From positions 7,979 through 71,978 of the forward strand of contig JANMVV010000009.1 of NCBI GenBank assembly GCA_031392925.1: a DNA stretch of 64,000 bases, given 5' to 3'. This document shows positions 8,158 to 42,148 of the stretch, one piece after another (within the stretch, counting starts at the first letter, position 1; each line of letters begins with the position of its first letter). The DNA comes from Vicinamibacteria bacterium. Its GTDB lineage: Bacteria; Acidobacteriota; Vicinamibacteria; Fen-336; JAGNNV01. The position numbers and the translations under genes are program-made. The notes under the pieces are model-generated. The model was not told the DNA's origin. It saw only the letters and a list, made by a program, of their open reading frames with translations, and searched no databases.

Positions 8158-9113
8158 GCCCGGCTCTTCAGTTCCGGCGAGCGCAACGCTTCCACCCGGC
8201 TCAGCAGAGTGACGGTGGCGTCATGACCGCGCGCTCGAAGGAGGAGATTTTTGGCCGCCAGTTCAACGAGGAGGGCCACGTTGCGACCGGGGGCCACGGG
8301 AAGGCGGAGGAGAGGAAGGTCGATATCCAGGATGGTCTCGGTCTCGCGATGGAGGCCCAGCCGGTCGTAGGCCTTGCGTGGATTCCACTTCTCCAGTCGG
8401 ACCACGAGGTCGATGGTCTGCCCCGGGCTCACCGCGGATACGCCGTAAAGGTCCTGGATGTTGAGGATCCCGAGACCTCGAATCTCCATGTGGTCGCGGG
8501 TCGGCAGGGGGGAGGCGCCGAGCAGGCCCTGGCTCGTGGCTTTGAGGTCGACGGCATCATCGGAGACGAGGCGATGGCCGCGGTCCACGAGTTCGAGGCC
8601 GCACTCGGACTTTCCGATCCCGCTGTCGCCCCGGATGAAGACGCCCACCCCGAGCACGTCGATGAGCACGCCGTGCAGGCGCCCGGTCCGGGCCAGACTA
8701 TCCTCGAGGAACTCGGTCAGCCGCTTGATGAAGGGCGTCGAATCGAGGGCGGTGGCGAGCAGGGGAATGCCGCGCCGATCGGATTCGCGCTGCAGTTCCG
8801 GCGGCACTTCGAGTCCGCGGGTCACCACCACGCAACACAGTTCGCGGGCCATCAGGCGGCGCAGAACCGCGGCTCGCTGCCGCACCGAGAGCGTCTTCAA
8901 GTAGGACGATTCGCTGCCCCCGAGGATCTGCACCCGGCCCGGGCTCAGGTAGCGGGTGAACCCGGTGAGAGCAAGACCCGGCCTTTGCACGCGCGACCGA
9001 TCGATGAGGTTTTTGAGGCCCGCCTTTCCCCCAACCAGGCGAAGGCCCAGGGGCGCCGCGGCCTCGCTCAGCAGCGCTTCAACGGGAACGAGCGGTGGCG
9101 AGCCCTTCTTCAC
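8154..9113 (-). CDS. hprK: HPr kinase/phosphorylase
   Basis: 319 aa. GDSGIGKSE P-loop and overall HprK architecture. Starts 4 nt inside the rpoN end. Confidence 0.9.
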   Translation of the reverse strand: MKKGSPPLVPVEALLSEAAAPLGLRLVGGKAGLKNLIDRSRVQRPGLALTGFTRYLSPGRVQILGGSESSYLKTLSVRQRAAVLRRLMARELCCVVVTRGLEVPPELQRESDRRGIPLLATALDSTPFIKRLTEFLEDSLARTGRLHGVLIDVLGVGVFIRGDSGIGKSECGLELVDRGHRLVSDDAVDLKATSQGLLGASPLPTRDHMEIRGLGILNIQDLYGVSAVSPGQTIDLVVRLEKWNPRKAYDRLGLHRETETILDIDLPLLRLPVAPGRNVALLVELAAKNLLLRARGHDATVTLLSRVEALRSPELKSRA

Positions 9114-10738: not shown

Positions 10739-11494
10739 TTAGCCCTTGGTCTCCGGAAGCATGAGGTCGAAATCATCGCCCAGGTAGACGCGTCGCACCT
10801 CGGGGTCGGTGGCGAGCGCCCTCGGCGTGCCCGTGCGGAAGACTTCGCCGTCGCGGATAATGTAGGCGCGATCGGTGATGCGGAGGGTCTCGCGGACGTT
10901 GTGGTCGGTGATAAGGATCCCGAGGCCCCGCTTCTTGAGGTACTCGATGATCCTCTGGATGTCGGCGACCGCAATGGGGTCGATACCCGCGAAGGGCTCG
11001 TCGAGGAGGATGAACAGGGGCGAGGCGGCGAGCGCGCGGCAGATCTCGAGACGGCGGCGCTCACCGCCCGAGAGCGTGTCGGCGCGCTGATGCGCGAGGC
11101 TCGCGATGCCGAGCTCTTGGAGGAGTTCGAGGGCCCGCGTCTTCTGCTCGCGCAGGGAGTAGCCGAGGGTCTCGAGGACGGCGAGGATGTTCTCCTCGGT
11201 GGTCAGTTTCCGGAAGACACTCGCCTCCTGGGGCAGATAGCCTATGCCCGCGCGAGCGCGGAGGTACATGGGCAGGCTCGTGATGTCGTCGCGGCCTAAA
11301 AACACCGACCCCGAGCGGGGCTTGGTGAGACCCACCACCATGTAGAAGGTCGTGGTCTTTCCCGCGCCGTTCGGGCCCAGAAGACCCACCACTTCCCCGG
11401 TGGAGATCTCGATGTCGACGTCCTTCACGACCACGCGGGAGCCATAGGCCTTGGTGAGGCCCTCTCCGCGAAGGACGATCTGCGGCGCGCTCAC
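10739..11494 (-). CDS. lptB: LPS export ABC transporter ATP-binding protein LptB
   Basis: 251 aa. Walker [18 protein letters not shown] signature and the conserved position directly upstream of rpoN. Confidence 0.9.
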
Positions 11495-26376: not shown

Positions 26377-28233
26377 ATGCTCCAACCCTCCCGTCTCCTC
26401 CGGCTGAGCCTCGTGGGCGCATCGGCCCTGCTGCTTCAGGCCTGCGGGGAATCGATCGTGAACGAGGGCCGACCCGGAGCCAGCATCATCGTGCCCGCGG
26501 GCGCTCCGGTCGAGGTCATGCGGGCGGCGAAGGAGCTCCAGACCTACGTCTTCAAGACCTCAGGGGCGGAACTCGCGATCCGGACCGACGACGCGCCGCG
26601 AACCGAGCGGGTGGAGATTCGCCTCGCGGTCACTCCGATCGGGATCACCGCGGGTGGAGATCCGACGACCCAGCTCGTGCACCAGGACGGTTACACGATT
26701 CAGAGCACCGGCCGGATGATCACGATCATGGGCGGCTCGCCCCGCGGGACGCTCTATGGCGTCTACGACTTCGTCGAACGTGTGCTCGGCGTGCGCTGGT
26801 TCATGCCCACCGATCTCGGCGAGGACCTCCTCCCCGCGAGGACGATCCTGGTCCCGGAACTGAACGTGGTGAAGAACCCCGCATTCCCGTCGGTGAGCGG
26901 CTTCACCTGGGCGGGAAGCCCGGGAGCCGAGGACTGGGAGCTCCGGTCGCGGGTTCGTGTCGGCAAGGCGGTGAGCTTCGGTCACAACTGGTACAACATC
27001 CACCGGTACTCCAGGGAAACTTTCGACAAGGACCCCGAGATGTTCGCCATGGTCGGGGGCAAGCGCGGGTACAGCAGCCAGTTGTGCACGGGCAACCCCA
27101 ACGTGGTCAAAGTCACGGCGGAGGCGGCTCGCCGCTACTTCACGGAGAATCCCGATGCGCCGCTTTTCTCCATCAGCCCCAACGACGGAAACGGCTGGTG
27201 CGAATGCGACCGGTGCCGGAAGATCGATGAGTTGTACGGCATCACCGACGGCAGCCTCGCCGATCGTTTCGTTCATTATGCCAACGAGGTTCTGAAAGAC
27301 CTCGAAAAATCCCATCCGGACAAGAGGGTCGGGATCTACGCCTACGCCGAGCACACCGTTCCCCCGAAGAAAGCGAAACCGCGACCCAACTACGAGACCG
27401 CGCTCACCCACCAGCCGTGGGCCTTTTGCCACGTGCACGCGATCGAGGATCCGTCATGTCCGGCGAACCGCGAGTTCCTCAGTTACCTCAAAGGCTGGCT
27501 GGCGCTCACGCGACACGTGGGCGTCTACGAGTACTACGGCCACTTCTTCGCCTTCACCCCCTGGCCCATCGTCCATTCGATCCGCCGCGACATTCCCCTC
27601 TTCAAGAAGCTCGGGGTGGAGCGGTTCATCAGCGAGACCCAGCAGAACTGGGCCAACCAGGGGATCAACTTCTACGTGGCCGCAAAACTCGTGGAGGACC
27701 CGGCCCGCGATGTCGACGCCCTCCTCGGCGAGTACTTCTGGCGGTTCTACGGCAAGGCCAGGGATCCGATGCGCCGCTACTTCGATTTGTGGGAGGACGC
27801 GATGCTGCAGACCGCCGCGGCCGGCGATCGCGGCTACGCCTGGCAGTCGATGTTCACACCTGCGCTGGTTTCGGAGGCGGGCCTGCTCCTGAAGCAGGCC
27901 GAGGCCCTCGCCAAGGCCGACACGGTGAAGGTCCAGGCCCGGGTGGCGTTCGCGCGCACGGGCTTCGGCTACACCGAGGCCTACACGCAGATGCTGGAGG
28001 CGACGCGTCGAAACGATCGGGCCGCGGTCCTCTCGTGGTCGGAAGAGGCGCAGAAGCGGATCAAGGCCACCGAAGGCTCGGCCCCGCAGGCCTTCTTCGT
28101 CTCTCTCGCGATCGACCAGACCCGCTATATCGCCAACAACATCCTCGCGCGGGGGGTGCTGCCCTGGGTGGCGCTCAAGCCGGTTCCCTTCCCGACCGCC
28201 ACCAAGACGCCCGGCCCGCCTACCATTCCTTGA
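26377..28233 (+). CDS. DUF4838-like lipoprotein, putative glycoside-hydrolase-like
   Basis: Start trimmed to MLQPSRLLRLSLVGASALLLQACG (lipobox LQAC). Conserved Cys cluster NDGNGWCECDRC. The DUF4838 assignment is from memory and tentative. Confidence 0.5.
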   Translation: MLQPSRLLRLSLVGASALLLQACGESIVNEGRPGASIIVPAGAPVEVMRAAKELQTYVFKTSGAELAIRTDDAPRTERVEIRLAVTPIGITAGGDPTTQLVHQDGYTIQSTGRMITIMGGSPRGTLYGVYDFVERVLGVRWFMPTDLGEDLLPARTILVPELNVVKNPAFPSVSGFTWAGSPGAEDWELRSRVRVGKAVSFGHNWYNIHRYSRETFDKDPEMFAMVGGKRGYSSQLCTGNPNVVKVTAEAARRYFTENPDAPLFSISPNDGNGWCECDRCRKIDELYGITDGSLADRFVHYANEVLKDLEKSHPDKRVGIYAYAEHTVPPKKAKPRPNYETALTHQPWAFCHVHAIEDPSCPANREFLSYLKGWLALTRHVGVYEYYGHFFAFTPWPIVHSIRRDIPLFKKLGVERFISETQQNWANQGINFYVAAKLVEDPARDVDALLGEYFWRFYGKARDPMRRYFDLWEDAMLQTAAAGDRGYAWQSMFTPALVSEAGLLLKQAEALAKADTVKVQARVAFARTGFGYTEAYTQMLEATRRNDRAAVLSWSEEAQKRIKATEGSAPQAFFVSLAIDQTRYIANNILARGVLPWVALKPVPFPTATKTPGPPTIP

Positions 28234-29356
28234 TGATGTTGAAGACGGTGTCGCGCTCCACGGGGCGACGGCCAGCTTCACGGATCAGGCGGCACAACTC
28301 GTCGACGGACAGCGACTGAGACGTGGGCGCGCCCGCATCATGGGCTACCTTCTCTTCGGTCACGGTGCCGTCGAGATCGTCGGCCCCGAACGACAGGCCG
28401 ATCTGGGCCACGCGCGGGCCGATCATGATCCAGTAGGACTTGATATGCGGGATGTTGTCGAGCATCAGCCGCGCCACCGCGATCGCCTTCAGGTCCTCGA
28501 AGCCGGTGGTCTCCGGCAGTTTCATGGAAGGCGCTTCCCAGGGCTGGAAGGCGAGGGGGATGAAGGTGACGAAACCGTTCGTCTCGTCCTGCAGCTCGCG
28601 CAGGCGGATCAGATGATCGACCCGGTCCTCGATGGTCTCGATATGGCCGTACAGCATCGTGCAGTTGCTGGGGATGCCCAGCTTGTGCGCCTGGCGGGCG
28701 ACGTCGAGCCACTGCTCGCCCGTGGCCTTGCCCTTGATGATCTTGTTGCGGGTTTCCTGGTTGAAGATCTCAGCGCCTCCTCCGGGCATCGAGTCCATCC
28801 CCGCTTCCTTGAGGGTCTGGAGGATTTCCACCACGGACTTCCGGTAGAGCTTGCTGAAGAAGAAGATCTCGACCGCAGTGAAGGCCTTCACGTGAATGTC
28901 GGGGCGGATCCGCTTGATCCCCTTCAGCATGTCGGTGAAGTACTGGAGGGGCAGGTCGGGATGGAGGCCGCCGACGATATGCACTTCCCGGCAGGCTAAG
29001 GGCTGCTTCGCGACATCGGCGAAGACCTGGTCGAGGGACATCGTGTAAGCGCGGGGCTCGCCCGTCTTCGCGGCGAAGGCGCAGAAGTCGCAGGTCGCCG
29101 CGCACACGTTGGTGTGGTTGATGTGGGTGTTGCAGACGAAATACGCCACGTCGCCGTGCTTCGTCTCGCGCACGTGGTTCGCGAGCCGTCCGAGACCGAG
29201 CAGGTCGTTGGTGCGATAGAGCGCGACGCCGTCGTCGAACGAGAGGCGCTTGCCCGCGCGAACCTTCGCGCGGATCGACTCGAGCGACGAGTCGTTCATC
29301 GGGAAGCTTTCGAGCACGGAAGGGACAGCCACGGCTGAGGCGTTCATTCCTGCCAT
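28220..29356 (-). CDS. radical SAM enzyme, futalosine-pathway MqnC/MqnE (or CofH) family
   Basis: Start trimmed to MAGMNASA. CAATCDFCAF is a CxxxCxxC radical-SAM cluster motif. Length and C-terminal region are typical of MqnC/MqnE/CofH-type enzymes. Confidence 0.6.
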   Translation of the reverse strand: MAGMNASAVAVPSVLESFPMNDSSLESIRAKVRAGKRLSFDDGVALYRTNDLLGLGRLANHVRETKHGDVAYFVCNTHINHTNVCAATCDFCAFAAKTGEPRAYTMSLDQVFADVAKQPLACREVHIVGGLHPDLPLQYFTDMLKGIKRIRPDIHVKAFTAVEIFFFSKLYRKSVVEILQTLKEAGMDSMPGGGAEIFNQETRNKIIKGKATGEQWLDVARQAHKLGIPSNCTMLYGHIETIEDRVDHLIRLRELQDETNGFVTFIPLAFQPWEAPSMKLPETTGFEDLKAIAVARLMLDNIPHIKSYWIMIGPRVAQIGLSFGADDLDGTVTEEKVAHDAGAPTSQSLSVDELCRLIREAGRRPVERDTVFNIIKEW

Positions 29357-29422
29357 TTTATTGGATAAAGGCTGCTTTCGCCTCACCTCTTGCGGTCTAC
29401 CGCACAGACGGGCCTATACTTT

Positions 29423-30661
29423 TTGGTTAAGGACGCTAAAACCCTGAGGAAACTCTTCTTCTGCCTCGTGATGGCAATCGGCCTCGCCGTTCTGCCCATC
29501 GACGCCTCCCCGTTCCTGGGGGGCACGGAATCGCTTGCCCTGGCCGCGATCACCCCGAAGTTTTCGGTGGTGCGCGGTCAGATCGAGCGGGGGAAGACGC
29601 TCGCCGCCGCCCTCTCGCGCGTGATCAGCGATCGGGAGATCCACGACCTCGTCCAGACCGCCCGCCCGAGCTATGACCTCAAGGATGTCCGCCCGGGCCA
29701 GGCCTTCCGCGTGTCGCTCTCCGAGGACGGGAAGCTGCACACGTTCGCTTACGCCATCGACGAACTGCGCACGCTGCGCGTCTCGAAGCGGGTGGATGGC
29801 CTCCACTCGGATATCGCATCCCGTCAGTACGAGGTGCGGGTGGGAACCGCCGCCGGCGTCATCGAGTCCAGCCTCTTCGAGACCATCGACTCGATCGGCG
29901 AGAAGGACGAACTCGCCATGGAACTGTCAGAGATCTTCGCCTGGGACATCGACTTCAACACGGCGATCCAGCGGGGCGACACGTTCCGGGTGGCGGTCGA
30001 GAAACTCTACCTCGACGGTGAGCTCCGCCGGTATGGAAAAGTCCTGGCCGCCGAGTTCGTGAACTCCGGCCGGACCCTTCGCGCCGTGCGCTTCGAAGGC
30101 CAGGACCAAACCACCGCCTACTACGAACCCTCGGGCGAGCCCCTGAAGAAGGCATTCCTGAAGTCGCCCCTGCGGTTCACGCGGGTGAGTTCCAGCTTCT
30201 CGGGTGGCCGCTTCCATCCCGTGCTGCATGTCACCCGCGCCCACAACGGCACCGATCTCGCCGCGACCTACGGAACTCCGGTGCGCGCGATCGGCCACGG
30301 CACCGTCACCACGGCGGGCTTCGAGAGCGGCTATGGGAACCTGGTCGCGGTCCGTCATGCGAACGGGTACACCAGTTACTACGGCCACCTGTCGAAGATC
30401 CTGGTGCGCGCCGGCCAGCGCGTCGCGCAGACCGATCTCGTGGGTCTGGTGGGAGCCACCGGTCTCGCCACCGGACCTCACCTGCACTACGGCATCATGA
30501 GGAACGGGGCGTGGGCCGATCCGATGCGCATCCAGAGTCCGCCCGCGGAGCCTCTGAGGGCGGAGGATCGGCCGGCTTTCCAGGAACTGGCGAAAGTGTC
30601 TTTGGCCCAATTGCCTCCCCAACCTGTGAACCTTAGAGCGGCGAACGACTCACGGCGTTAG
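29423..30661 (+). CDS. M23 family metallopeptidase (LytM-type) with N-terminal membrane anchor
   Basis: C-terminal HNGTDLAA...GATGLATGPHLHYG are the M23 Zn-ligand motifs. Start is uncertain (TTG 29390, TTG 29423 or ATG 29471). Confidence 0.8.
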   Translation: MVKDAKTLRKLFFCLVMAIGLAVLPIDASPFLGGTESLALAAITPKFSVVRGQIERGKTLAAALSRVISDREIHDLVQTARPSYDLKDVRPGQAFRVSLSEDGKLHTFAYAIDELRTLRVSKRVDGLHSDIASRQYEVRVGTAAGVIESSLFETIDSIGEKDELAMELSEIFAWDIDFNTAIQRGDTFRVAVEKLYLDGELRRYGKVLAAEFVNSGRTLRAVRFEGQDQTTAYYEPSGEPLKKAFLKSPLRFTRVSSSFSGGRFHPVLHVTRAHNGTDLAATYGTPVRAIGHGTVTTAGFESGYGNLVAVRHANGYTSYYGHLSKILVRAGQRVAQTDLVGLVGATGLATGPHLHYGIMRNGAWADPMRIQSPPAEPLRAEDRPAFQELAKVSLAQLPPQPVNLRAANDSRR

Positions 30662-30670
30662 AGTCGTCGC

Positions 30671-31324
30671 ATGAGCTCTCGGGGTCTGGTGCGACGTGGC
30701 CTCCCACCCCTCCTGGCTCTCGGCGCAGCCGCGATGGTGCTGCCCCTTCACGGCTCGGCGCGGGCCGCTTCGCCCGTGGTCACGGTCGGCGCAGGCGGAG
30801 CGAAGATCAAGGTGACCCAGGCGTCGCTGTCGGAAGCAATCGACGCCCTCGCGCGCGCCGCCGGCTTCCGGGTGACCTACGAGGGCGCGCGGCCGACTGT
30901 CATGCTCTTCAACGCCGAGATCGACACCCCCACCGTGGCCCAGACGCTCTTCCGCCTCATCGACGGGCAAAATCTCAACTACGCGGTGATGTTCGACCTC
31001 AGCGGAAAGCAGGTCACGTCTCTCCTCGTCCTCGGCATCCCGCCCAAGACCGGTGGAGCGCCCGGTGTACCTGCAGGCGCCGCGCGGCCTCAGCCCTTCA
31101 CGCCGCCCCGCGGGTCGAGAAGCGACATGCCGGTGCTCGATGACGATCCGGCCGAACCCGAACCGGAATCGACGCCGCAGCCGACGACGGCGCCCCCACC
31201 CGCGGCTCCTCCGAGGGGCAGTCCGGGCGGACCGACATCACCCGCCCCGCCCTCCCCTTTCACACCAAGGCCTCTGTTCGGCAGCCCGTTCGGTCCGCGC
31301 CCCTCTCCTTCGCCCTCACCGTGA
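30671..31324 (+). CDS. secreted protein with STN-like (secretin/TonB N-terminal-like) domain and Pro-rich tail
   Basis: 217 aa. Signal peptide. KIKVTQASLSEAIDALARAAGFRVTYEG fits the short STN domain pattern. The C-terminal third is a P/S/T/G low-complexity tract. Starts 10 nt after the M23 peptidase. Confidence 0.4.
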   Translation: MSSRGLVRRGLPPLLALGAAAMVLPLHGSARAASPVVTVGAGGAKIKVTQASLSEAIDALARAAGFRVTYEGARPTVMLFNAEIDTPTVAQTLFRLIDGQNLNYAVMFDLSGKQVTSLLVLGIPPKTGGAPGVPAGAARPQPFTPPRGSRSDMPVLDDDPAEPEPESTPQPTTAPPPAAPPRGSPGGPTSPAPPSPFTPRPLFGSPFGPRPSPSPSP

Positions 31325-31951
31325 CACTCGAGGCGTCTCGAGGTCGGGGGCTCGCTGGCCGCCGCCTTGAGGCGGAGCCTGGTTGGGCGCTCGGGGTGGC
31401 CCGCTCACCGCGGCCGACTGACCGCCCACGATGAACGGGATATTCGGAGCGAAGACCCACTGGTTGTAGGCCAGATTCCCGTTCACAAGACGAAGGCCGG
31501 TTTCCTTCGAGAGGCTTGCCACGCCGGCGATCGGCCCGGAGGGAGCGCCTGAGTTGCCGCCAAAAACCGGCGTCGGCGCAGGAGTCGGCGTTGGTGTCGG
31601 CCGGCCCGATCCGCCGAGCGACCCGCCCGGCCCGCCCGGTCGCGCCGGCACCACTTCACCGGGACGCACGATGCGCCACTTCCCATCCGCGCTCATCGGG
31701 TCCTTGTAGGCCTGGCGCAGATACTTGCCCTTGACGAGCTGATCGAAGGAGGTGGGGAGCGCGTTGCCGTTCTTGCGCTGAAACCGGGCGATGGCCGCGG
31801 AGATCTGGCGTCCCCTGAAGATGAGCTCCTGCTCCTTGTCGTCCTTCACGAGGTAGCGCCAGGAAGGCATCGCAAGCATGAGAGCGAAGGTCATGATCGC
31901 GATCATGGCCAGGAGCGCAGGCATGGAGAAACCCGACTCGTTCCGGCTCAC
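31316..31951 (-). CDS. atypical pseudopilin-like protein (GspG-like core, non-canonical prepilin motif, Gly/Pro-rich tail)
   Basis: 211 aa. N-terminal GFSMPALLAMIAIMTFALMLA is a prepilin-like hydrophobic segment lacking Glu at +5. FDQLVKGKYLRQAYKDPMSADGKW resembles the GspG core. Confidence 0.5.
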   Translation of the reverse strand: MSRNESGFSMPALLAMIAIMTFALMLAMPSWRYLVKDDKEQELIFRGRQISAAIARFQRKNGNALPTSFDQLVKGKYLRQAYKDPMSADGKWRIVRPGEVVPARPGGPGGSLGGSGRPTPTPTPAPTPVFGGNSGAPSGPIAGVASLSKETGLRLVNGNLAYNQWVFAPNIPFIVGGQSAAVSGPPRAPNQAPPQGGGQRAPDLETPRVSR

Positions 31952-32631
31952 TGCTTCTTTCCGAACGCCTTCGCGGTGGAGCCTTGTTTCTCCGCCGTCT
32001 CGAAGTCCTTGACGACCCTGCGAATGTAGCCGCGGGTCTCGCCATAAGGAGGAACGCCGTTGTACTTCGCGACCGCACCCGCGCCCGCGTTGTAGGCGGC
32101 CAGAGCCTCGGCCACGCGCCCCTCGTATCTCTCCAGCAACCGGCGCAGCAGGCGGGCGCCCGCGTCGATGTTCCGGGCAGGGTCGAAGGCATCGGCAACA
32201 CCGAGTTCTCTGGCGGTTCCCGGCATGAGCTGCATCACGCCCCGAGCGCCCTTCGGTGAGACCGCGTCCGGATTGAGGGCCGACTCGGCCCGCGCCACCG
32301 CGCGGACCAACGACCGCGGCAACGCGTACCTGTGGGCCGCATCCCCCACCATCTGCTCGATGGTTCGCGGCGTTGAATCGACAACGCCCGCGGGCGAAGC
32401 GACGGGCACGACCGGCTCGGCGTCGACCTCCTCGTCGGGCTCCACGCGCTCGATATCGATGGCGCGGACCTCGATGTCGCCGCCCTTCAGAGTCGCGACG
32501 CAGGCGGACGCGTTGCAGGAGAGCGCGTCGATCTTGAGCGTCTTGCCCACTCGGAGGTAGAGCGTGTCGGCCGACGCGGCGCCCGGGCCCACGGCCCAGA
32601 TCAGGATGGCCACCAGGAAGAAGGCTCTCAC
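31948..32631 (-). CDS. lytic transglycosylase (SLT domain), secreted
   Basis: 227 aa. Signal peptide. GVMQLMPGTARELG and AYNAG are SLT catalytic-domain motifs. Confidence 0.8.
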   Translation of the reverse strand: MRAFFLVAILIWAVGPGAASADTLYLRVGKTLKIDALSCNASACVATLKGGDIEVRAIDIERVEPDEEVDAEPVVPVASPAGVVDSTPRTIEQMVGDAAHRYALPRSLVRAVARAESALNPDAVSPKGARGVMQLMPGTARELGVADAFDPARNIDAGARLLRRLLERYEGRVAEALAAYNAGAGAVAKYNGVPPYGETRGYIRRVVKDFETAEKQGSTAKAFGKKQ

Positions 32632-32638
32632 GACGAGG

Positions 32639-33352
32639 CTACGGGGCGGCCAGAACCTGGATGGTGATGTCGGCGATCGTGCCCGTGGAGGGTGCCAACA
32701 CCTCGACCTTGACGGTGATCGTGCCCGCCGTGGTCCGGGAGGTCTGGACTCGATTCACCGCATCGCCGTTGTTGTTGGTGGTCACATCCGTTCCGTCCAG
32801 CAGGCGATCGGTCGCGGGGTTGTTCGAAACCGAGAACCGGACAATGATTCCCGGGATCGGGTTTCCCTTGTCGTCGAGGACGGTGGCCCGGATCGACGCG
32901 ATGGACTTGCCCAGTCTCAGGTCGATGGTCGGGTCGATGGCCTGGGTTTTCACCTGGCTCACCCGGGGCGCCCCGATAACGATGTTCTCCGCTTTGACGT
33001 TGACGGGGCCGGACGCTGCGGTCACCACCGCGGTACCGGAACGCGCATCGGAGATGAGGTTCACCCGGGCCACCCCATCGTTGGTCTTCGCCTGCTCCTG
33101 GATCCTGCCAAGGGTCGTGAAGAACTGAATGACCGTCCCGTCCGGAACGGGTGTGCCCGCCTTCTCGGTGGCGAGCACCGAGACCACCGCGCTGGCGCCG
33201 TTGGCGGCGATGAACGAAGGGTTCACGAAGATCTGAAGGGTGGTGCCGTCAGGCGCGCTCAGGATGGCCTGGCCGCAGGACGCGAACGCCATTCCCGCAA
33301 TGATGAGCGCAACCAGGCCGCCCACCGTCCTTCTCCTGACCCGACGTGTCAT
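32639..33352 (-). CDS. lipoprotein with tandem bacterial Ig-like (Big/invasin-type) domains
   Basis: 237 aa. Lipobox FASC. Repeated motifs TAVVTAASGPVNVKAE and ATVLDDKGNPIPGIIVRFSVSN...TAGTITVKVEV are typical of Big_1-type Ig domains. Confidence 0.5.
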   Translation of the reverse strand: MTRRVRRRTVGGLVALIIAGMAFASCGQAILSAPDGTTLQIFVNPSFIAANGASAVVSVLATEKAGTPVPDGTVIQFFTTLGRIQEQAKTNDGVARVNLISDARSGTAVVTAASGPVNVKAENIVIGAPRVSQVKTQAIDPTIDLRLGKSIASIRATVLDDKGNPIPGIIVRFSVSNNPATDRLLDGTDVTTNNNGDAVNRVQTSRTTAGTITVKVEVLAPSTGTIADITIQVLAAP

Positions 33353-35757
33353 GGGGTCACCGTAACACGAACGGCTCCAGCCGACGGAACCGGGCCCTGT
33401 GCAGTTCCAGAGCTCAGGGAGAGACTCTCGACGAAGATCGTCGCCTCGCCTGGACGGGTGGCCCGAAAACCGACGATCGCGACCGTGCCGGTTCCACCGG
33501 CAAGCGGCGTGAGCCGTTTGAACTGGGCCGAGGCCCGCGAGCCTTCGAACTGCCGCTCGGCCAGGACCTGGACGCCGTCGACGGAGAGAAGCTGGCCCGC
33601 GGCCATCTCCACGAACTCGAGGGCGGGCGAGTCCGCGCGCACCGTGATGCTCACATCCTTCAGCGAGCGCGCGTTGAAGAGGTTCACGGCCACGCGCTGA
33701 ACCTCGCCGACCCTCATCCGGACCTCGGTGCGGTCCCAGGCGGAGCGAGAAGCGAGCGGGCCCCCCGCAGGAGGCGGTGTAGGCGCTCCCCGCGTGACCG
33801 GATCGAGGGCCGAACCCGACGGCGACGCGGTCTCACTGGGAGGAGCGGGAGACGCGGATGTCGTCGCCGAAGAAGTCAGCGACGCGACCGGCGTCGGCAC
33901 GGGAGTGGGTGATGCGGCCGGAGTCTCCGCGCGAGCGGCGGGCGCCGGCGTTTCGGGCTCTGGCTCCACCTCCTCGCGTCCGAAGAGCGGACGCACGCCG
34001 GGAATGCGGAGATTGTTGCGGAGACCGAGATACAAGGGCTCCACGTCCTCGGCCACGACGTTCGGCGCCCGGAGAATGTGCGGGGTGAGCGAAATGAGAA
34101 TCTCGATGTCCTGGTCCGAGGCTTGGTGGCTGCCCAGGATCTTGTTGAGAATCGGGATCGAATCGATGCCCAGCGCGCCCTTGATCGCGCGCGCCTCACG
34201 GCCCTGGATCAGGCCGCCGATGACCGCGGTCACGCCGTCGGTGAGGCGAAGGGTGTTCTCCAGCTTGCGGGTCAGGAACGTCGGATAGTTGGTTGCGCTG
34301 GCGCCGGTGCCGAAGACCTTGTCCTCACCGAGCGCCGAGAACTCGGCCTTGAACTCCATGGTGATCTCGTCGTTCGCGGTCACCTTGGTCTTGTCGATTT
34401 CGAGATTGACGCCGACCGTCTTGTATTGAGCGCTGGTGGTTCCGCCAAACCCACCGGAGGGTTGGCCCGGCACGGACTGCTGGGCATAGCCCGGATAGAA
34501 CTGAGGAATGGGAATGTCGGTGCCCACGTTGAATGTCGCCTTCTTGCCCTCGAAGGCCCGAACCTTGGGCGAGGACAGGATCTTCACCATGGTGTCGTCG
34601 TGAAGGAACTTCGCGAAGACGCCCGAAGGAATCTGCACGACCCAGTCGGAGGCGTTGAGCGAGGAGAGGAAGATGGCCCTCAGGTTTGTCAGTCCCCCGG
34701 CCACCTCTCCCGCCACCCCGGTGGGCTGCAGTTCGACGCCCGCCTGATAGTTGGAGAGTTGCAGGCCGTAGTCCTTCGCCTTCGTCCGGTTGATCTCGAG
34801 GATCTCGACTTCGACCAGGATCTCGCCCTTGGGCTTGTCGTTCGAACGGATGAAGCGATCGGCGAGTGCCATTTCGTCCGGAGTGGCGATGACGGTAATG
34901 GAGTTCGTGGTGTCGTTCTTCGCCACCTTGGTCTGGGCGCCGAGCGCGGTGCGCAGCGCGGCCTCGAGCTCCTTGGCCTCGACGTTTTCGAGGTAGAAGG
35001 TGCGCATGACCTGATCGTCCCAGCGCTGGCGGGTCTGAGCGTTGGTGTCGTCGAAGATCAGGATGGTGTTGCGATCGAGGACCCGGTAGGCCTTCTTGTT
35101 GATGAGGCCGATCTGGTCGAGCGCCTCCTGGAAGGTGACGCCGGTCAGGTTGGAGGAGATGACCTTGTCCTTGCCCTGCAGATCCGGGTCGAACACCACG
35201 TTGACGCCGACCAGAGCCCCGAGAGTCTGATAGATCTTCTCCAGCCGCTCGGTCATGTTGAGCTTGATCGGAACCGGGGACCGCGGCGAGAGCAACGGCA
35301 CGGGCAGGGTCGCATCGGCGGGCCGGCGCCCGGCGAGGTCCTTCTGCTGACGCTTGTCCGCGGCGATCTTGTCGATCTGGGCCTGGAGGACAGCCATGTC
35401 GTCGGCCGCTGCCCGGTTCGACGAGTCGTAGCCGACCGCGATCCCATACTCTTCCTTCGCCTTTTCGAGGTTCCCGGTCTGGAGATTCCTGCGAGCCTTT
35501 CCCGTGTGATCCCGGCTGGCCTGGATCTTCGCGTTCTCGAGGGCGATCTTGTACTTGATGTTCCTCGGGGAGGCGGTCAGGGCCTTGGTGAAGCGGGCCA
35601 CCGCCATGTCCCAGTCGCCCTTTTCCGAAAAGCGCTGCCCGCCCCGATAGGCGTTGCTGGCGGCGCAGGCGGAGGAAAAGATGGCGAGCGCCGCCACGAC
35701 CCCCAAGGTCGCGGCTCGGAAGCGCGGGCTTCGTTCACGGTTCAATCGGGTCTTCAA
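33349..35757 (-). CDS. gspD: secretin (GspD/PilQ family), lipidated, with N-terminal TPR-like region and about 240-aa C-terminal extension
   Basis: 802 aa. Lipobox FSSACAAS. The secretin C-domain is VIGGLIQGREARAIKGALGIDSIPILNKILGSHQASDQDIEILISLTPHIL. N-terminal helical TPR-like segment. A Pro/Thr/Ser linker plus beta-rich domain follow the secretin core. Confidence 0.85.
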   Translation of the reverse strand: MKTRLNRERSPRFRAATLGVVAALAIFSSACAASNAYRGGQRFSEKGDWDMAVARFTKALTASPRNIKYKIALENAKIQASRDHTGKARRNLQTGNLEKAKEEYGIAVGYDSSNRAAADDMAVLQAQIDKIAADKRQQKDLAGRRPADATLPVPLLSPRSPVPIKLNMTERLEKIYQTLGALVGVNVVFDPDLQGKDKVISSNLTGVTFQEALDQIGLINKKAYRVLDRNTILIFDDTNAQTRQRWDDQVMRTFYLENVEAKELEAALRTALGAQTKVAKNDTTNSITVIATPDEMALADRFIRSNDKPKGEILVEVEILEINRTKAKDYGLQLSNYQAGVELQPTGVAGEVAGGLTNLRAIFLSSLNASDWVVQIPSGVFAKFLHDDTMVKILSSPKVRAFEGKKATFNVGTDIPIPQFYPGYAQQSVPGQPSGGFGGTTSAQYKTVGVNLEIDKTKVTANDEITMEFKAEFSALGEDKVFGTGASATNYPTFLTRKLENTLRLTDGVTAVIGGLIQGREARAIKGALGIDSIPILNKILGSHQASDQDIEILISLTPHILRAPNVVAEDVEPLYLGLRNNLRIPGVRPLFGREEVEPEPETPAPAARAETPAASPTPVPTPVASLTSSATTSASPAPPSETASPSGSALDPVTRGAPTPPPAGGPLASRSAWDRTEVRMRVGEVQRVAVNLFNARSLKDVSITVRADSPALEFVEMAAGQLLSVDGVQVLAERQFEGSRASAQFKRLTPLAGGTGTVAIVGFRATRPGEATIFVESLSLSSGTAQGPVPSAGAVRVTVTP

Positions 35758-35769: not shown

Positions 35770-36309
35770 CTAGTTCGTCTTGAGGGGCAGACGGCGGGTC
35801 CTCCCGGACCCCATCTCTTCGATTTCCGCCGACTCGGCGCCGATGCGGATGACGCGAAACGCGTTGCCGAGCACCTGCCCCACCTGACCGACCAGGAGTA
35901 TCTCTCCATCTTTGACGAAGGAGGCGATCTTCCGGCCTGCCCCATTATCAACGATCCCGATGAGGCTGAGGTTGAGGGGGGGCCACGGAGTGGGAGTGGG
36001 CGGGGCCTCGGGGGTTGGAAACGGAGTGGGACCAGGCAGGGGGGGAAGCTTGATCACGGGCGTCGGCAGGGGATTCTGATCAGCGCGCGAGTCGCGACCG
36101 AACTTGAAGACGTCGCGAGAGGGAGGGGCAGCGAGAGGTTCGGGCCGGCCCAGCCGGTCGAGACCGATGGCCGGAACCTCCGAGCCCGCCTCCAGGCGAA
36201 GCGCCGCCTTCTCGGGCGTGTCACCCGATCTCCCAAAGGCGCTCCAACCCAGAGCCGCCGTGAGGACGAAAAGCAGCACGGCGAAAAGCTCCTTCCGCCC
36301 CATCACCAT
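35770..36309 (-). CDS. PilP/GspC-like secretin-interacting protein (TM anchor, Pro-rich linker, HR-like beta domain)
   Basis: 179 aa. N-terminal TM, PTPVIKLPPLPGPTPFPTPEAPPTPTPWPP linker, and C-terminal LIGIVDNGAGRKIASFVKDGEILLVGQVGQVLGNAFRVIRIG resembling PilP/GspC-HR domains. Confidence 0.45.
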   Translation of the reverse strand: MVMGRKELFAVLLFVLTAALGWSAFGRSGDTPEKAALRLEAGSEVPAIGLDRLGRPEPLAAPPSRDVFKFGRDSRADQNPLPTPVIKLPPLPGPTPFPTPEAPPTPTPWPPLNLSLIGIVDNGAGRKIASFVKDGEILLVGQVGQVLGNAFRVIRIGAESAEIEEMGSGRTRRLPLKTN

Positions 36310-36728
36310 TCGCTGTAGGGCACGCCATTCAAACCGACCTGGCCCGAAGCGCTTTTGACGTCGAAGACACCGGTCATGGCCTCGCCGCTGGTCGCAGCGG
36401 TCTCGGGCGGTATCTCAACCCAGGGCTCGGAGGAGATGGGGTCGGGCGGGATCTTCCGGAGGTACCCGTCGGTGACCAGGGCCTCCAGGGTTTCCGGGTA
36501 CTTCCCTTTGTCGGACTGGTACTGATCGATCAGATCGCGCAGGCGATAGAGGTTCTCGCGAAGCACGGCCTCGCGGGCGGAGAGCACGGAGTTGCGGTAG
36601 TTGGGCAGGGCGATCGATACCAGGATGCCCATGATCGTGATGACCACGATCAACTCCAGAAGGGTGAAGCCCTTCGATCGATCGTTTCTTCTTCGTGATG
36701 CGGGAGATGCGGAATTCAGTGCCACCAT
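36303..36728 (-). CDS. gspG: type II secretion major pseudopilin GspG
   Basis: Start trimmed to MVALNS...KGFTLLELIVVITIMGILVSIALPNY (canonical prepilin cleavage/methylation motif with Glu+5). YQSDKGKYPETLEALV...YLRKIPPDP is the GspG signature. Confidence 0.8.
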   Translation of the reverse strand: MVALNSASPASRRRNDRSKGFTLLELIVVITIMGILVSIALPNYRNSVLSAREAVLRENLYRLRDLIDQYQSDKGKYPETLEALVTDGYLRKIPPDPISSEPWVEIPPETAATSGEAMTGVFDVKSASGQVGLNGVPYSEW

Positions 36729-37207
36729 CACCAGTCCTTCAACTTTGTGCCGTCGAGCGCCCTTCCATCGGCCAGGGAGTAGACATCGTAAACGTTGTCG
36801 CCGCACCACGAGGAAGAATCGTGTTCGTCCTGATAGCAGTGCATCCCCCATTCGGCCTTTCCAGAAAAGGGATCCAGGGGAATCCGCCTGAGGAACTTCA
36901 GCTTGATTCCCGGACGCCCCACCTGATTGACACCTTGGACCATGGTCTCGAGCGATTCCGGGTAACCCTCGCTCCCCAGCTTCACATCGGTCCCCCCGAT
37001 CTGCCCCCGGTCGACGCCATCCTTGAACCGGTCGATGGCGGTCCGGATCTCGCGGAGCGAGCGCCGAAGTTCGATCTCCCTCTGCCGCTCACGCGTGACC
37101 CTTGAAAGGGGCAGGACCGCCGCGGCCAGAATGGCGATGATGGTCGCTACCGCGATCACCTCGAGGAAGGTGGTGCCGCGCTCACTGCGTCGCACGGGGG
37201 TCTCCAT
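36728..37207 (-). CDS. GspG-like pseudopilin, second paralog
   Basis: 159 aa. RGTTFLEVIAVATIIAILAAAVLP prepilin motif. GYPESLETMV...RRIPLDPF resembles the GspG core. Overlaps its neighbours by a few nt. Confidence 0.65.
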   Translation of the reverse strand: METPVRRSERGTTFLEVIAVATIIAILAAAVLPLSRVTRERQREIELRRSLREIRTAIDRFKDGVDRGQIGGTDVKLGSEGYPESLETMVQGVNQVGRPGIKLKFLRRIPLDPFSGKAEWGMHCYQDEHDSSSWCGDNVYDVYSLADGRALDGTKLKDW

Positions 37208-37745
37208 CCTTGAAGATGGCCGAGAGCTTCAGATTCATCCTCGCTCCATCCTCTTCCTGCACGAGGGCCATCTGATCGACCACGATGAAGCGCCTCGCGG
37301 ACTCGATGCGAGCCAGGAAACCGGTGAGATTCGCGTAGCTCCCCTCGAGCGGCAGCGTGACCTCGCAGCGGACGAGATCGGTGCCCCGGACCTTCGAGAT
37401 GGAATAGGCGCTCCTCTTGGGCTTGAGCCCCGCGTCGCGGGCGAGCCGTTCGATCTCCCGCTGGGCGCCGAAGAGGTCCTCGTTTCGATATTTGAGATGG
37501 TCGCGGCTCAGGCTCTCGATGTCCTGGCGGTTCTGGGCCAGAAGCGCTTTGCGCACCGCCACCTGCGACCACACGCTCTCGAGCCCGGCCCGGCGCGTCG
37601 ACACTGCCTTCGCGCGGTTCTCGGCCCGGCGAACGGAGGTGAGCCTCGGCCAGGTGAGGGCAGCGAAGAGTAGGGCATTGGCGATGAGCAGAAGCGCACC
37701 GATCCAGGCCAGGCGCAGCCTTGTCTTCGAAGAGCGCAGGCTCAT
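37182..37745 (-). CDS. PilO/GspM-like inner-membrane assembly protein
   Basis: Start trimmed to MSLRSSKTRLRLAWIGALLLIANALLFAALTW (187 aa): TM, coiled coil, then periplasmic domain. ATGA overlap with the upstream gene. Confidence 0.45.
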   Translation of the reverse strand: MSLRSSKTRLRLAWIGALLLIANALLFAALTWPRLTSVRRAENRAKAVSTRRAGLESVWSQVAVRKALLAQNRQDIESLSRDHLKYRNEDLFGAQREIERLARDAGLKPKRSAYSISKVRGTDLVRCEVTLPLEGSYANLTGFLARIESARRFIVVDQMALVQEEDGARMNLKLSAIFKDGDPRATQ

Positions 37746-38344
37746 CGCGTCTTCCTCGCGACGGGCGGGGAGGAGGGCGAAGGGAGGGGGCGGTTGTCGG
37801 GATCGAAGACCACCTCCATCACGAACTCCGTCCCCTCCTGGGTGTCCGACAGCGATTTGAGCGACGCGTTCGAAAACACGGGCGAGGCGTCGAGGGTTTC
37901 CGCGAGGGAGAAGGCCGCATCCTTGGTCCGGGCCACCCCCGACAGGTCGATCAGCATGCTGCGGGCGCCGCGGGGGGTGGTGGGCGAGATCCGGTCCAGC
38001 CGGACGTCGTCGGCAAGGGCCCCCTCCAGTTCGGCGAGGAGCCGACGCCACGGGAACACGCGTCGATCCACCAGCTCCTTGTATGCGAGAAGACGCACAA
38101 CCTCGGACGCTTCGATCTTGAGCGGAGGTTCCCTGGCAATGCCCTCTTCGAGCTCCGCGATCCTGGCCTCGTCCTGCCGGACCGCGCGCACGGTGTTGGC
38201 CTCCTCGCCCGAAACGAGCCGGCTCAAGAAGCGCCCGTGCAGGAAGGACGCCAGAAGGGCCCCGCCGAAGAGAAGTCCGGACAGGAGCCAGAGAAGCCTC
38301 TCGTTCCGGAAAGGCCGAAGGGCCAGATTCGTGGATGCCATCAT
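37742..38344 (-). CDS. PilN/GspL-periplasmic-like inner-membrane assembly protein
   Basis: Start trimmed to MMASTNLALRPFRNERLLWLLSGLLFGGALLASFL (200 aa): short cytoplasmic N-terminus, one TM, coiled coil and periplasmic domain. Confidence 0.45.
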   Translation of the reverse strand: MMASTNLALRPFRNERLLWLLSGLLFGGALLASFLHGRFLSRLVSGEEANTVRAVRQDEARIAELEEGIAREPPLKIEASEVVRLLAYKELVDRRVFPWRRLLAELEGALADDVRLDRISPTTPRGARSMLIDLSGVARTKDAAFSLAETLDASPVFSNASLKSLSDTQEGTEFVMEVVFDPDNRPLPSPSSPPVARKTR

Positions 38345-38349
38345 TGGGG

Positions 38350-39299
38350 TCAGTAGGCTCCAAGCAGGGCCAGCGCGGGCGAAGCCGAACGCTCCACCGC
38401 GGTGGGCATCCCCGCCACCACCAGATGCGCGGGGGGCTTTGCTCGTTGAGCCACGCACCCGAAAGCCGCACTGATGTCGTCGCTCAGTGCTTCGAACCAT
38501 CGATCCGAGGCGTGGACGACCGCGGAGGCGAGCCGGGTTCCCGCAAGGCGATCCCGCCAGAAGACCGCGGTGGAGGCAATCTCCCGCCGCACCTCTTCGA
38601 GACTTCGCGCCACCGTGGCGTCGAACGAACGGATGGACACCGGCCACCCCTGCCGCATGAGAGTCAGGGTCAGCCAGATGGGATCGTGGCGAACCAGGAG
38701 GGCGTCTCCTTCGACCTCCAGTCCCCGGAGGAGCGCCATCGACGAGGTTTCAACCGAACCGACATCGAGACCGAAGGCCTGGCCCACCTGTTCGTAGGCG
38801 CCGAGAACCGCGCTCGAAAAGCCGACGGCCAGGACCGGATCGGTTAAGGAGCGGGGCCAGGCCGCGACCACCCTGACCTCAGCGGGGGGAAACGGGAGGA
38901 GCTTCTGCATTCGGAAAGCGATCACCGCGTCCCGCCGCTCCGGCTCGGACCGGACCTCATCCTGCCCGAACAGACGGAAACGCGCCACCACGTCGGGCAC
39001 GACCAGCGCCGCGCGGACCGAGGGCGTAGCACCGATCTTCGACAGGACGCGCTTCGCGGCGTCGCGCATCTCCTCCTTGTTGACGAAGCCCGGATCATCG
39101 AGGGACGGGACGAAGGTTCCTTCGCTCAACGGCTCGCTGACCAGCGCGCGAAGCTCCACCTTCCCGCGCTTCGATTCCACCCGGGCGCCCACCAGGGCGA
39201 CGGAGGAGAATTCGAGCGCTATCTGAGCGCCCTCCGGGTCCAGGAAGAAGTGCCGGAGCCTTTCCACCACGGACCTCGGCCGCGCCGCGGGGCCTCTGA

Positions 39300-39303
<4 letters not shown>
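38350..39303 (-). CDS. PilM/GspL-cytoplasmic-like actin-fold assembly protein
   Basis: About 318 aa from the GTG that overlaps the gspE stop (GTGA). Begins ...VVERLRHFFLDPEGAQIALEFSSVALVGARVE, like the PilM N-terminus. Start codon choice is uncertain. Confidence 0.5.
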
Positions 39304-40937
<1,634 letters not shown>

Positions 40938-40939
40938 GG

Positions 40940-42148
40940 CTAACCTCCTCCTCGCGACTGGAGGGCCGAGAAGGCCTCGAACATCGGCAGGTAGAGCGCC
41001 AGCACCATGGAACCGATGATCACGGCCATGAAGACGAGGAGAACGGGCTCGACCAGGGCCAGGATGGTCTGGACCTTCACCTCGAGATCCTCGTCATAGA
41101 AATCCGCGACCTGGTTCAGCATCTCGCCAAGGGCGCCCGTGTTCTCGCCCACCCGGATCATCTCCACGGTGAGCGGCTCGACCTGGCCGGTGGCATCGAG
41201 CGCCAGCGAGAGGCTCTTGCCTTCCTGAATCTGAGGCACGGCGGCCGCGGCCGCCGCCGAGATCGCTCGATTCCCCACCGACGCGGAAGCGACGCCGAGC
41301 GCCTGCACCAGGGGGAGGCCGCCGGAAAGAAGAGTGGAGAGGCTGCGCGCGAGCTGGCTGGTGGAGTAGGTGCGCATGAGCGCTCCGAAGAAGGGGATAT
41401 TGAGGATCCACCCATCGAACCGCTCCCGATTCGCGGAGGCCTGCAGCCAGGAGGCAAAGGCAAAACCAGACACCGCGAGGAGCGCCAGGAGAGGCAGGCT
41501 CCATTGCCGCGCCTGATCGGACAGGCCCATGAGGACGCGCGTGGGCAGGGGCAGTTGAGCGCCGAGGCTCCCATAGAACTCGGTGAACTGGGGAAGGACG
41601 CGGGTGAGCATCACGTACATGAGGCCGAACATGCCGGAGAAAAGCACCATCGGATAGACGGACGCCGCAATGACCTTCTTCTTGATCGCCTGGTTGAGCT
41701 TCACATACGAAACGAATCGCCGCAGCACCGCCTCGAGATTGCCGCTCCGCTCGCCCGCAACGAGGCTCGCTGAAAACATCTGCGGGTACAAGGCGCCCTC
41801 CTGCCGGAAGGATTCCGAGAGCGCGGCCCCGGATTTGATCCGATCCCGCACCGCGCCGAGCGATCGCTTGAACAAGGGATCTCTCTGGCGCTCGACCATG
41901 AGATCCATCGACTGCGCAAGGGGAAGGCCGGCCTTGAGAAGAGCGGCCAGTTCCTGGCCGAAGAGCTGCAGGTTTTCGGGCTTGACCCGCGGCGCGCCGA
42001 ACCGGAACCCCTGCGTCCTCTTTCGGTGAGAGAAAAGGAACAGGCCCTGACGCAGCACGTCGGCTCTTAAAGCCTCCTCATTCGGGGCATCGAAACTCCG
42101 TTCGACGATTTCCCCGGCGGGCGTGCCGACCTTGCAGATGTACTCCAT
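40940..42148 (-). CDS. gspF: type II secretion / type IV pilus platform protein (GspF/PilC family)
   Basis: 402 aa. Two GspF repeats, three TM segments, and a conserved N-terminal region MEYICKVGTPAGEIVERSFDAPNEEALRADVLRQGLFLF. Confidence 0.9.
   Translation of the reverse strand: MEYICKVGTPAGEIVERSFDAPNEEALRADVLRQGLFLFSHRKRTQGFRFGAPRVKPENLQLFGQELAALLKAGLPLAQSMDLMVERQRDPLFKRSLGAVRDRIKSGAALSESFRQEGALYPQMFSASLVAGERSGNLEAVLRRFVSYVKLNQAIKKKVIAASVYPMVLFSGMFGLMYVMLTRVLPQFTEFYGSLGAQLPLPTRVLMGLSDQARQWSLPLLALLAVSGFAFASWLQASANRERFDGWILNIPFFGALMRTYSTSQLARSLSTLLSGGLPLVQALGVASASVGNRAISAAAAAAVPQIQEGKSLSLALDATGQVEPLTVEMIRVGENTGALGEMLNQVADFYDEDLEVKVQTILALVEPVLLVFMAVIIGSMVLALYLPMFEAFSALQSRGGG

Follow-up and report, generated by a model that had tools for sequence, protein, structure and literature searches.

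A Vicinamibacterial secretin with a predicted lipid anchor, a TPR module, and a tethered C-terminal cohesin domain

Two aspects of secretin biology are still being worked out: the route by which secretins arrive at the outer membrane and become inserted there, and the way in which machines resembling type II secretion systems (T2SS) choose their partners and cargo. In the solved secretin–pilotin complexes (PulD–PulS and GspD–AspS), the C-terminal S-domain of the secretin is found outside the barrel on its periplasmic side, beneath the inner leaflet of the membrane. Tetratricopeptide repeat (TPR) lipoproteins, namely PilF, PilW, and Tgl, reportedly act as pilotins as well, and HxcQ of Pseudomonas aeruginosa is said to be a liposecretin. 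Here, we describe a secretin from the Vicinamibacteria, a dominant and barely cultivated class that is among the most abundant bacterial classes in soil. It is encoded in a T2SS-like operon on a 64,000-nucleotide stretch of a Vicinamibacteria (Acidobacteriota) metagenome-assembled genome (MAG; GenBank assembly GCA_031392925.1, contig JANMVV010000009.1, positions 7,979 to 71,978), which we call the window.

In this protein, the pore subunit itself combines a predicted lipid anchor with a TPR module and a putative docking module of the cohesin type. Its parts follow one another in the order lipobox cysteine (Cys31), TPR module, Pro-rich motif, N0-like domain, a single Secretin_N domain, secretin barrel, a segment resembling an S-domain, a tether, and a C-terminal domain (limits in Table 1).

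Secretin core and C-terminal cohesin

The open reading frame (ORF) of 802 amino acids, read directly from the sequence, has a TTG start and is intact at 33349..35757 on the reverse strand. An earlier, sequence-only reading had described its secretin core as conventional, and this is borne out by Pfam, which recognizes Secretin (PF00263) at residues 385–563 with 95 bits against a cut-off of 27.5, placing the protein in the secretin superfamily, and Secretin_N (PF03958) at residues 251–310 with 40 bits against a cut-off of 28.2. A phmmer search returned solved secretins from T2SS, phages, and type IV pili (T4P), including GspD, ExeD, PulD, and PilQ. We also built a full-length AlphaFold model on 70 homologues, which has a mean predicted local distance difference test score (pLDDT) of 78; its best Foldseek matches are secretins, with E-values down to 9e-18. 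As is typical of the superfamily, the barrel is preceded by periplasmic N-domains (N0/STN and Secretin_N), of which the N1-type domain is modelled at residues 250–306 as β-α-β-β-α, and a type IV filament machine is encoded alongside on the same strand (T2SSE, T2SSF, PilN, T2SSM_b, and N_methyl pilins). The NCBIfam equivalog model for GspD, TIGR02517, scores 125.6 bits against a cut-off of 351.35 and is still the best-scoring secretin model; that for PilQ, TIGR02515, scores 76.8 bits against 284.35, and AMIN domains are absent. Judged by these scores, the protein is a member of the secretin superfamily, but no equivalog of GspD or PilQ.

Directly after the barrel, at the position of the S-domain, follows a conserved segment in which Asp571 and Gly578 are invariant and Pro565, Arg589, Leu591, Phe592, and Gly593 are at least 90% conserved, the last four as part of an R-P-L-F-G motif. 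The model shows a short helix here (residues 569–576), and the phmmer alignment to Escherichia coli GspD (5wq7) extends to residue 587 of the query.

The last 136 residues form a folded β-rich domain, as had been proposed from the sequence, which is modelled with a pLDDT of 95.5 on its own and above 93 within the full-length protein and can be aligned without gaps in 116 homologues. In the window copy, the only Pfam match of residues 667–802 is Cohesin, with 14.2 bits against a cut-off of 24.1 (E = 0.05). The family membership becomes clear from the orthologues: 30 of 38 orthologous tails match the cohesin family PF00963 at E ≤ 0.01, the best with 2.4e-14, and Cohesin is precomputed in many of the full-length homologues. 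A profile built from the orthologous tails and searched against 177,635 PDB sequences found cohesins only (best E = 8e-7). Likewise, the top 50 Foldseek matches of the tail model in the PDB are all cohesins, with E-values down to 1.2e-9 and template modelling scores of 0.58–0.72, which establishes the fold. They comprise cellulosomal cohesins of types I, II, and III as well as non-cellulosomal ones from A. fulgidus (2xdh) and C. perfringens (2jh2, 2vo8, and 2w1n), and some were solved in complex with dockerins.

An exhaustive search with the tail profile against 1.84 billion representative sequences yielded 5713 matches at E ≤ 1e-3. Among the best 150 of these, secretin fusions are mixed with ordinary multi-cohesin proteins of other bacteria, and the relatives include scaffoldin-like proteins with several cohesins, some of which carry a dockerin or a type IX secretion system (T9SS) sorting tail. 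Because the profile also matches such ordinary multi-cohesin proteins, the tail belongs to the cohesin superfamily as a regular though diverged member and is not a fold specific to secretins. The same search of a set of 5.8 billion proteins returned mostly fragments from contig ends and was uninformative on distant architectures. The resemblance between the tail and the Ig-like domain of the lipoprotein encoded downstream, which the sequence-only reading had suggested, did not hold up: hhalign gives a probability of 0.4% and BLASTP an E-value of 1.3. No second copy of the cohesin, the secretin, or the TPR module was found in the window.

The cohesin is connected to the secretin by the Pro/Thr/Ser/Ala linker that had already been recognized in the sequence. 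It contains 25% Pro, 20% Ala, 14% Thr, and 14% Ser, and the pLDDT remains below 50 throughout residues 588–663. With 17–27% identity and 28–48% gaps relative to the homologues, it is the sole poorly conserved part of the protein. Across the family, the linker is 26 to 120 residues long (median 68) and contains 32% Pro, 20% Ala, 10% Thr, and 9% Ser. A variable tether followed by a gap-free C-terminal domain is what would be expected if a flexible leash held a folded module, the leash lying between two constrained modules.

The N-terminal end and the distribution of the design

The N-terminus of the window copy reads MKTRLNRERSPRFRAATLGVVAALAIFSSAC31AAS. A public copy of exactly this protein (P0001, 782 residues) is annotated to start 20 codons further downstream at Val21 (GTG), which leaves out region 35698-35757 of the window and deprives the signal peptide of its positively charged n-region. 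Translation from the TTG is backed by the conserved N-terminus MKTRL.RERSPR of a homologue with 80% identity (P0004). The lipobox noted earlier, FSSAC, is confirmed in that Cys31 is invariant in all 108 homologues that retain the N-terminus, out of an alignment of 116 full-length homologues. Most homologues have lipoboxes of the form [AS][GA]C, and among the sequences read, none has Asp at position +2. At the sequence level, the protein has what is expected of a liposecretin, namely a lipobox cysteine with an outer-membrane sorting residue at +2, and its N-terminus is predicted to be anchored in the outer membrane as a lipoprotein.

The cysteine is followed by a TPR-like helical module of approximately 2.5 repeats plus one long helix. 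Pfam matches to TPR_2 and TPR_11 are weak in the window copy, and a profile from 18 N-termini matches consensus TPR proteins in the PDB with E = 1e-20. In the AlphaFold model, the module consists of helices 32–46, 49–62, 67–94, 97–110, and 115–143, with a pLDDT above 90. Residues 10–130 also resemble the N-terminus of Myxococcus TraC in NCBIfam (E = 7.7e-9). TraC is an outer-membrane TPR lipoprotein needed for outer-membrane exchange, and the similarity probably reflects merely the lipoprotein signal and TPR that both proteins have in common.

Between the TPR module and N0, a stretch modelled with low confidence (residues 145–163) contains the linear motif LPVPxLSPRS. Among 70 sequences, Leu156 and Arg159 are invariant and Pro152, Pro154, Ser157, Pro158, and Ser160 are at least 90% conserved, while the pLDDT of the segment is only 56–63. 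The motif looks like a peptide ligand or docking site.

The domain that follows has the topology β-α-β-β-α-β-β with a pLDDT of 83–93 and resembles N0. STN matches the window copy weakly (residues 185–235, E = 0.035, 14.3 bits against 28.4), and STN (PF07660) is flagged in many of the homologues. The sequence-only reading had placed a TPR-like segment where N0 would be expected; the TPR assignment stands, but N0 is not absent. Since an N0-like domain is present after the TPR module, the latter is an addition ahead of N0 rather than its replacement.

Homologues with 58–100% identity, as well as those with 40–49%, share the length of the protein and the order of its parts. In many of the latter, Pfam flags Cohesin, and NCBI names one of them a "cohesin domain-containing protein". 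When hidden Markov models built from the alignment were used, the TPR module, the secretin core, and the cohesin were found together in 117 of the 121 proteins retrieved. We also scanned one genome per GTDB species, which yielded 73 loci, nearly all of them titled as Vicinamibacteria, Vicinamibacterales, or Acidobacteriota MAGs; the exceptions are a single Dehalococcoidia, a single Solibacteraceae, and one weak match in Verrucomicrobia (24% identity). The three modules occur in one ORF in 53 of these loci and the cohesin in 65; the remaining loci are truncated at contig ends or disrupted by frameshifts. A more distant Vicinamibacterales copy with 34% identity has 2436 relatives at E ≤ 1e-20, and among the matches listed, these are mostly of ~800–870 residues and flagged with TPR, STN, Secretin_N, Secretin, and Cohesin. 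Thus, the design of lipid anchor, TPR, secretin, and cohesin is typical of the clade, the rule in Vicinamibacteria, and extends to thousands of sequences. The earlier description of the secretin as unusual is therefore right when it is held against model organisms and solved secretins, but not within Vicinamibacteria. We count the co-occurrence of the modules in 117 of 121 proteins, in 53 of 73 loci, and in the 34%-identical branch as selection on the three-module design.

In some database entries, the cohesin appears as a separate ORF of 120–132 residues directly after a shorter secretin. Two such splits are located in loci L001 and L002, ENA assemblies with consecutive accessions. In L001, a frameshift is located within the GC-rich Pro/Ala linker (about 7800–8000 of that locus), and the Pro/Ala-rich reading goes on in another frame; in L002, genes are fragmented across the whole locus (split at 6000–8400). 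In a third locus, L020, one in-frame stop codon separates the linker from the cohesin (11023–11025). Several "MFD" bins are likewise broken into frame-shifted pieces. Split records of this kind yield spurious stand-alone "cohesin" ORFs of 120–132 residues in protein databases.

The domains are already visible in routine Pfam and NCBI annotation, and we found neither a published description nor a known function of the protein. The possibility, raised with the sequence-only reading, that the extension is a common and already described domain is thus half true: it is annotated, but we found no publication that describes it. In the full-text literature, we found no paper that links a natural secretin to a cohesin, although Peer et al. 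(2009), whose survey of cohesins from outside the cellulosome was not covered by the search, may list such proteins.

Possible roles of the tethered cohesin

The structure of the protein is thereby explained, and the function of its cohesin is what we infer. The reading that we tentatively favor is that of a self-anchored three-module secretin whose periplasmic cohesins dock a separate partner. The lipid anchor and the TPR module would bring the secretin to the outer membrane via the lipoprotein pathway, and the TPR module, being located beside the anchor, may act in cis as TPR lipoprotein pilotins do in trans. By homology and fold, N0, N1, and the barrel constitute a conventional gated pore. 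After the S-like segment, a Pro/Ala/Thr/Ser leash of ~70 residues bears the cohesin, which would give each pore a ring of about 12–15 leashed cohesins in the periplasm, just under the outer membrane. There, the cohesin would tie a partner encoded by another gene to the side of the pore that faces the periplasm. Candidates are cargo or a factor for assembly or for remodelling of the cell wall, for which the Big_1 lipoprotein and the SLT transglycosylase encoded downstream are examples.

Besides the identity and joint conservation of the parts, the invariant lipobox cysteine, and the Big_1 lipoprotein gene that overlaps the secretin gene and recurs in 64 of the 73 loci, two analogies support this proposal. 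Because the S-domains in solved complexes lie on the periplasmic side, the tether and the cohesin should be periplasmic as well; entries for two secretin–pilotin complexes, 5zdh and 6hcg, are among the fold matches of the secretin model. Wherever the function of a cohesin is known, it is, to our knowledge, the docking of proteins, and since this is so, protein–protein docking is the most likely role of the tail, which would hold a partner at the pore.

Several points weigh against this reading. Topology and lipidation, on which it depends, are both features that we infer. The profile of the TPR module found only generic or designed TPR proteins in the PDB and no pilotin, and homology of the module to the pilotins PilF, PilW, and Tgl is not supported, TIGR02521 scoring 12.7 bits against a cut-off of 154 (E = 0.066); by these comparisons, its likeness to TPR pilotins is architectural only. 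The tail of the window copy has diverged to below the Pfam threshold, so that its binding specificity may depart from that of classical cohesins. Finally, a regular expression for the dockerin calcium loop, D-x-[ND]-x-[DN]-G...D, found no match in the window and, in 1.23 Mb of related loci, a single match located in a low-complexity, off-frame ORF that is not a dockerin.

In a more specific proposal, the cohesin ring would be a built-in receptor for proteins carrying a dockerin or another tag, coupling recognition of the cohesin–dockerin type to a Gram-negative secretion pore. Such tagged proteins could be exoenzymes that are kept at the pore, or cargo that is picked up in the periplasm and then exported. 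We regard this receptor function as unlikely; if true, T2SS-like machines would have a way of selecting substrates or partners that is new.

The main rival to docking of a separate partner is a clamp for self-assembly, or self-piloting, in which the cohesin binds the TPR module or the LPVPxLSPRS motif of the same or a neighboring subunit, replacing the contact between pilotin and S-domain and stabilizing or timing the assembly of the ring. A classical lipoprotein pilotin binds the C-terminus of its secretin, and in the present protein, a single chain has both ends; the cohesin is inherited together with the TPR module and its predicted lipid anchor (117 of 121 homologues); a strongly conserved linear motif in a low-confidence linker is typical of a peptide ligand; and no dockerin motif is found in the window or in the 1.2 Mb of related loci. 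A tether of 26–120 residues, however, exceeds what an intramolecular clamp needs, and the ligands of known cohesins are dockerins rather than TPRs or peptides rich in Pro; we consider the clamp somewhat unlikely. If the cohesin contacts only its own TPR module, the protein would be a one-chain version of the pair of pilotin and S-domain.

Surface exposure and a role in glycan binding are less likely. In surface display, which agrees with the topology assumed in the sequence-only reading, the tether would cross or bypass the outer membrane, and a surface cohesin would anchor dockerin-bearing exoproteins beside the pore through which they were secreted, as a Gram-negative cellulosome anchor. The P/T/S-rich linker is like the linkers of scaffoldins, the fold matches include dockerin-complexed cohesins, and the related cohesins occur in scaffoldin-like proteins, some with the dockerin or T9SS tail mentioned above. 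Yet the C-terminus is periplasmic in all solved secretins and no route across the membrane is known for it, 12–15 tethers passing through the channel would presumably block it, and the lack of dockerins in the window and in the related loci counts against surface display, too; we consider it quite unlikely.

Slimmer still is the chance that the cohesin-fold sandwich acts in the manner of a carbohydrate-binding module (CBM), comparable to the AMIN domains of PilQ, and fastens the secretin to peptidoglycan or to some polysaccharide that is secreted or located in the periplasm. An SLT transglycosylase gene and an M23 peptidase gene are located beside the operon, the domain is placed on a long tether as AMIN domains are, and one related multi-cohesin protein weakly matches the carbohydrate-binding family Cthe_2159, scoring 19.3 bits where the cut-off is 25.8. 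However, every significant match of the tail, whether in sequence or in fold, is a cohesin and not a CBM, and we know of no glycan-binding cohesin.

That a frameshift or assembly error fused the secretin gene to a downstream gene, as the separate cohesin ORFs in some entries might suggest, has a negligible probability, as the split in L001 is itself a frameshift in the linker, L002 is fragmented throughout, a stand-alone cohesin would be without a signal peptide, and the ORF is uninterrupted in the window, in two independent records with 100% and 98% identity, and in the 117 of 121 homologues and 53 of 73 loci that keep the three modules together.

The docking of a separate partner thus remains the reading that we prefer, as a lead from domain architecture rather than a demonstrated mechanism, and the automatic annotation of the domains limits the surprise. 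If the cohesin binds a defined partner, the 136-residue domain would offer a handle on the assembly factors or substrates of an uncharacterized secretion system, and cohesin biology would extend into the Gram-negative envelope.

Operon context and comparison with described systems

The secretin gene is located within one co-directional block that also encodes GspE, GspF, PilM/N/O-like proteins, and pseudopilins (Table 1). Most of the operon neighbors recur in 54–67 of the 73 loci, and their order is the same in L001.

Table 1. Parts of the secretin and neighboring genes, with positions in the window and strand
Feature	Residues	Position (strand)	Basis or remarks
Signal peptide and lipobox	1-31, ...AIFSSA/C31, Ala at +2	35665..35757 (-)	Read from sequence
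TPR-like helical module	32-143	35329..35664 (-)	Pfam, profile against PDB, AlphaFold
Short linker with Pro-rich linear motif LPVPxLSPRS	Motif ~150-160 (window 35278-35310)	Linker 35269..35328 (-)	Conservation
N0-like domain	164-236	35050..35268 (-)	AlphaFold and weak STN
Secretin_N (N1/N3-type) ring domain, single	250-310	34828..35010 (-)	Pfam PF03958 and model
Secretin barrel	312-563	34069..34824 (-)	Pfam PF00263, phmmer, Foldseek
Post-barrel segment at S-domain position	564-595	33973..34068 (-)	Conservation and model
P/A/T/S-rich tether	596-666	33760..33972 (-)	Composition, pLDDT, alignment
C-terminal cohesin module	667-802	33352..33759 (-)	Pfam of orthologues, profile, AlphaFold, Foldseek
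GspF platform protein		40940-42148 (-)	Pfam T2SSF 8e-51; NCBIfam GspF 318 bits, below equivalog cut-off
GspE-type ATPase with MshEN N-domain		39300-40937 (-)	Pfam T2SSE 3e-131, MshEN 4e-19
PilM-like, PilN, PilO/T2SSM_b alignment-complex genes		37182..39534 (-)	Pfam PilN 2.4e-8, T2SSM_b 4.3e-7
Two pseudopilin genes		36303..37207 (-), ORFs 36303-36851 and 36728-37207	N_methyl motif, weak T2SSG
179-aa protein with N-terminal transmembrane helix, Pro-rich linker, small C-terminal beta domain		35770..36309 (-)	Between pseudopilins and secretin
Big_1 lipoprotein with two Big_1/Invasin_D3 Ig-like domains		32639..33352 (-)	Pfam Big_1 2.5e-13; downstream of secretin
SLT lytic transglycosylase		31948..32631 (-)	Pfam SLT 1.3e-29; syntenic in L001, 54/73 loci
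211-aa protein with pilin-like hydrophobic N-terminus		31316..31951 (-)	Last gene of cluster; 67/73 loci
610-aa polytopic membrane protein		42183-44015 (-)	Directly upstream of gspF; 6/73 loci
217-aa secreted protein with long Pro-rich tail		30671-31324 (+)	No family match
M23 peptidase with Csd3-like domain		29390-30661 (+)	Next to operon, divergently oriented; syntenic in L001
MqnE/MqnC-type radical SAM gene		28220-29386 (-)	Syntenic in L001

Downstream of the secretin, the ATG of the Big_1 lipoprotein gene, which is present in 64 of the 73 loci, overlaps the secretin stop codon as ATGA (33349-33352), and the stop codon of the SLT gene and the start of the gene for the 211-residue protein overlap likewise (31948-31951). 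These two overlaps suggest that translation is coupled along the distal genes of the operon. The 211-residue protein has no match in Pfam or NCBIfam.

The same holds for the 179-residue protein encoded upstream of the secretin, which is detectable by BLAST in only 37 of the 73 loci; going by its position, it could be a link to the secretin of the PilP/GspC type. The two pseudopilins score 50.7 and 23.1 bits with the GspG model TIGR01710, both under its cut-off, and the true start of ORF 36303-36851 is probably internal. As listed, the ORFs of the PilM-, PilN-, and PilO-like proteins are over-extended at their 5' ends, and their gene order is identical in L001. The ATPase scores nearly equally with the NCBIfam models for GspE (542 bits) and PilB (536 bits), without reaching the cut-off of either; its MshEN domain is of the type known as a receptor for cyclic di-GMP in MshE. 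By their best NCBIfam matches, the operon proteins lean toward the T2SS, with all scores below equivalog cut-offs.

The polytopic membrane protein of 610 residues, which is encoded directly upstream of gspF, has no match in Pfam or NCBIfam. Since it is present in 6 of the 73 loci only, it probably does not belong to the conserved machine. Other genes near the operon encode the M23 peptidase, the MqnE/MqnC-type radical SAM protein, and the secreted 217-residue protein.

With GspD and PilQ (5wq7, 6i1x, 6hcg, 6w6m, and 6ve2), the protein shares the barrel, one Secretin_N domain, and an N0-like domain, and with T2SS and T4P operons, its operon shares an ATPase of the GspE/PilB type, a GspF/PilC platform protein, PilM/N/O-like proteins, and pseudopilins. 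It differs from GspD and PilQ by having a single N1-type domain between N0 and the barrel and no AMIN domains, a lipid anchor and TPR module in front, and a tether and cohesin at the back. Among the characterized or solved secretins in the PDB matches and the literature, we found none with a fused TPR or a C-terminal cohesin.

Like the liposecretin HxcQ and the lipoprotein secretins of type IVb pili, for example BfpB, the protein has an N-terminal lipobox of its own, so that by analogy, targeting without a separate pilotin would be possible; BfpB (9u5s) is the second-best fold match of the secretin model. In contrast to HxcQ, which is reportedly equipped with a lipid anchor and linker only, it has a folded TPR module after the cysteine and a cohesin at its end. 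The pilotins PilF (P. aeruginosa), PilW (Neisseria), and Tgl (Myxococcus) are likewise secretin-associated TPR lipoproteins of the outer membrane, but here the TPR module is fused to the secretin and is much shorter.

In PulD–PulS (6hcg) and GspD–AspS (5zdh), too, the barrel is immediately followed by a short helical stretch that is conserved, and in all of these, a C-terminal element is probably used for protein–protein contact under the outer membrane. In the Vicinamibacterial protein, however, the S-like segment is far shorter, and what follows it is the ~70-residue tether and the 136-residue fold rather than a pilotin-binding helix. This fold is that of the cellulosomal and non-cellulosomal cohesins of PF00963, a family membership that can be recognized across the orthologue family. 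What sets it apart from those cohesins is its setting: it is present as a single copy and forms the C-terminus of a Gram-negative outer-membrane pore, where it is probably located in the periplasm.

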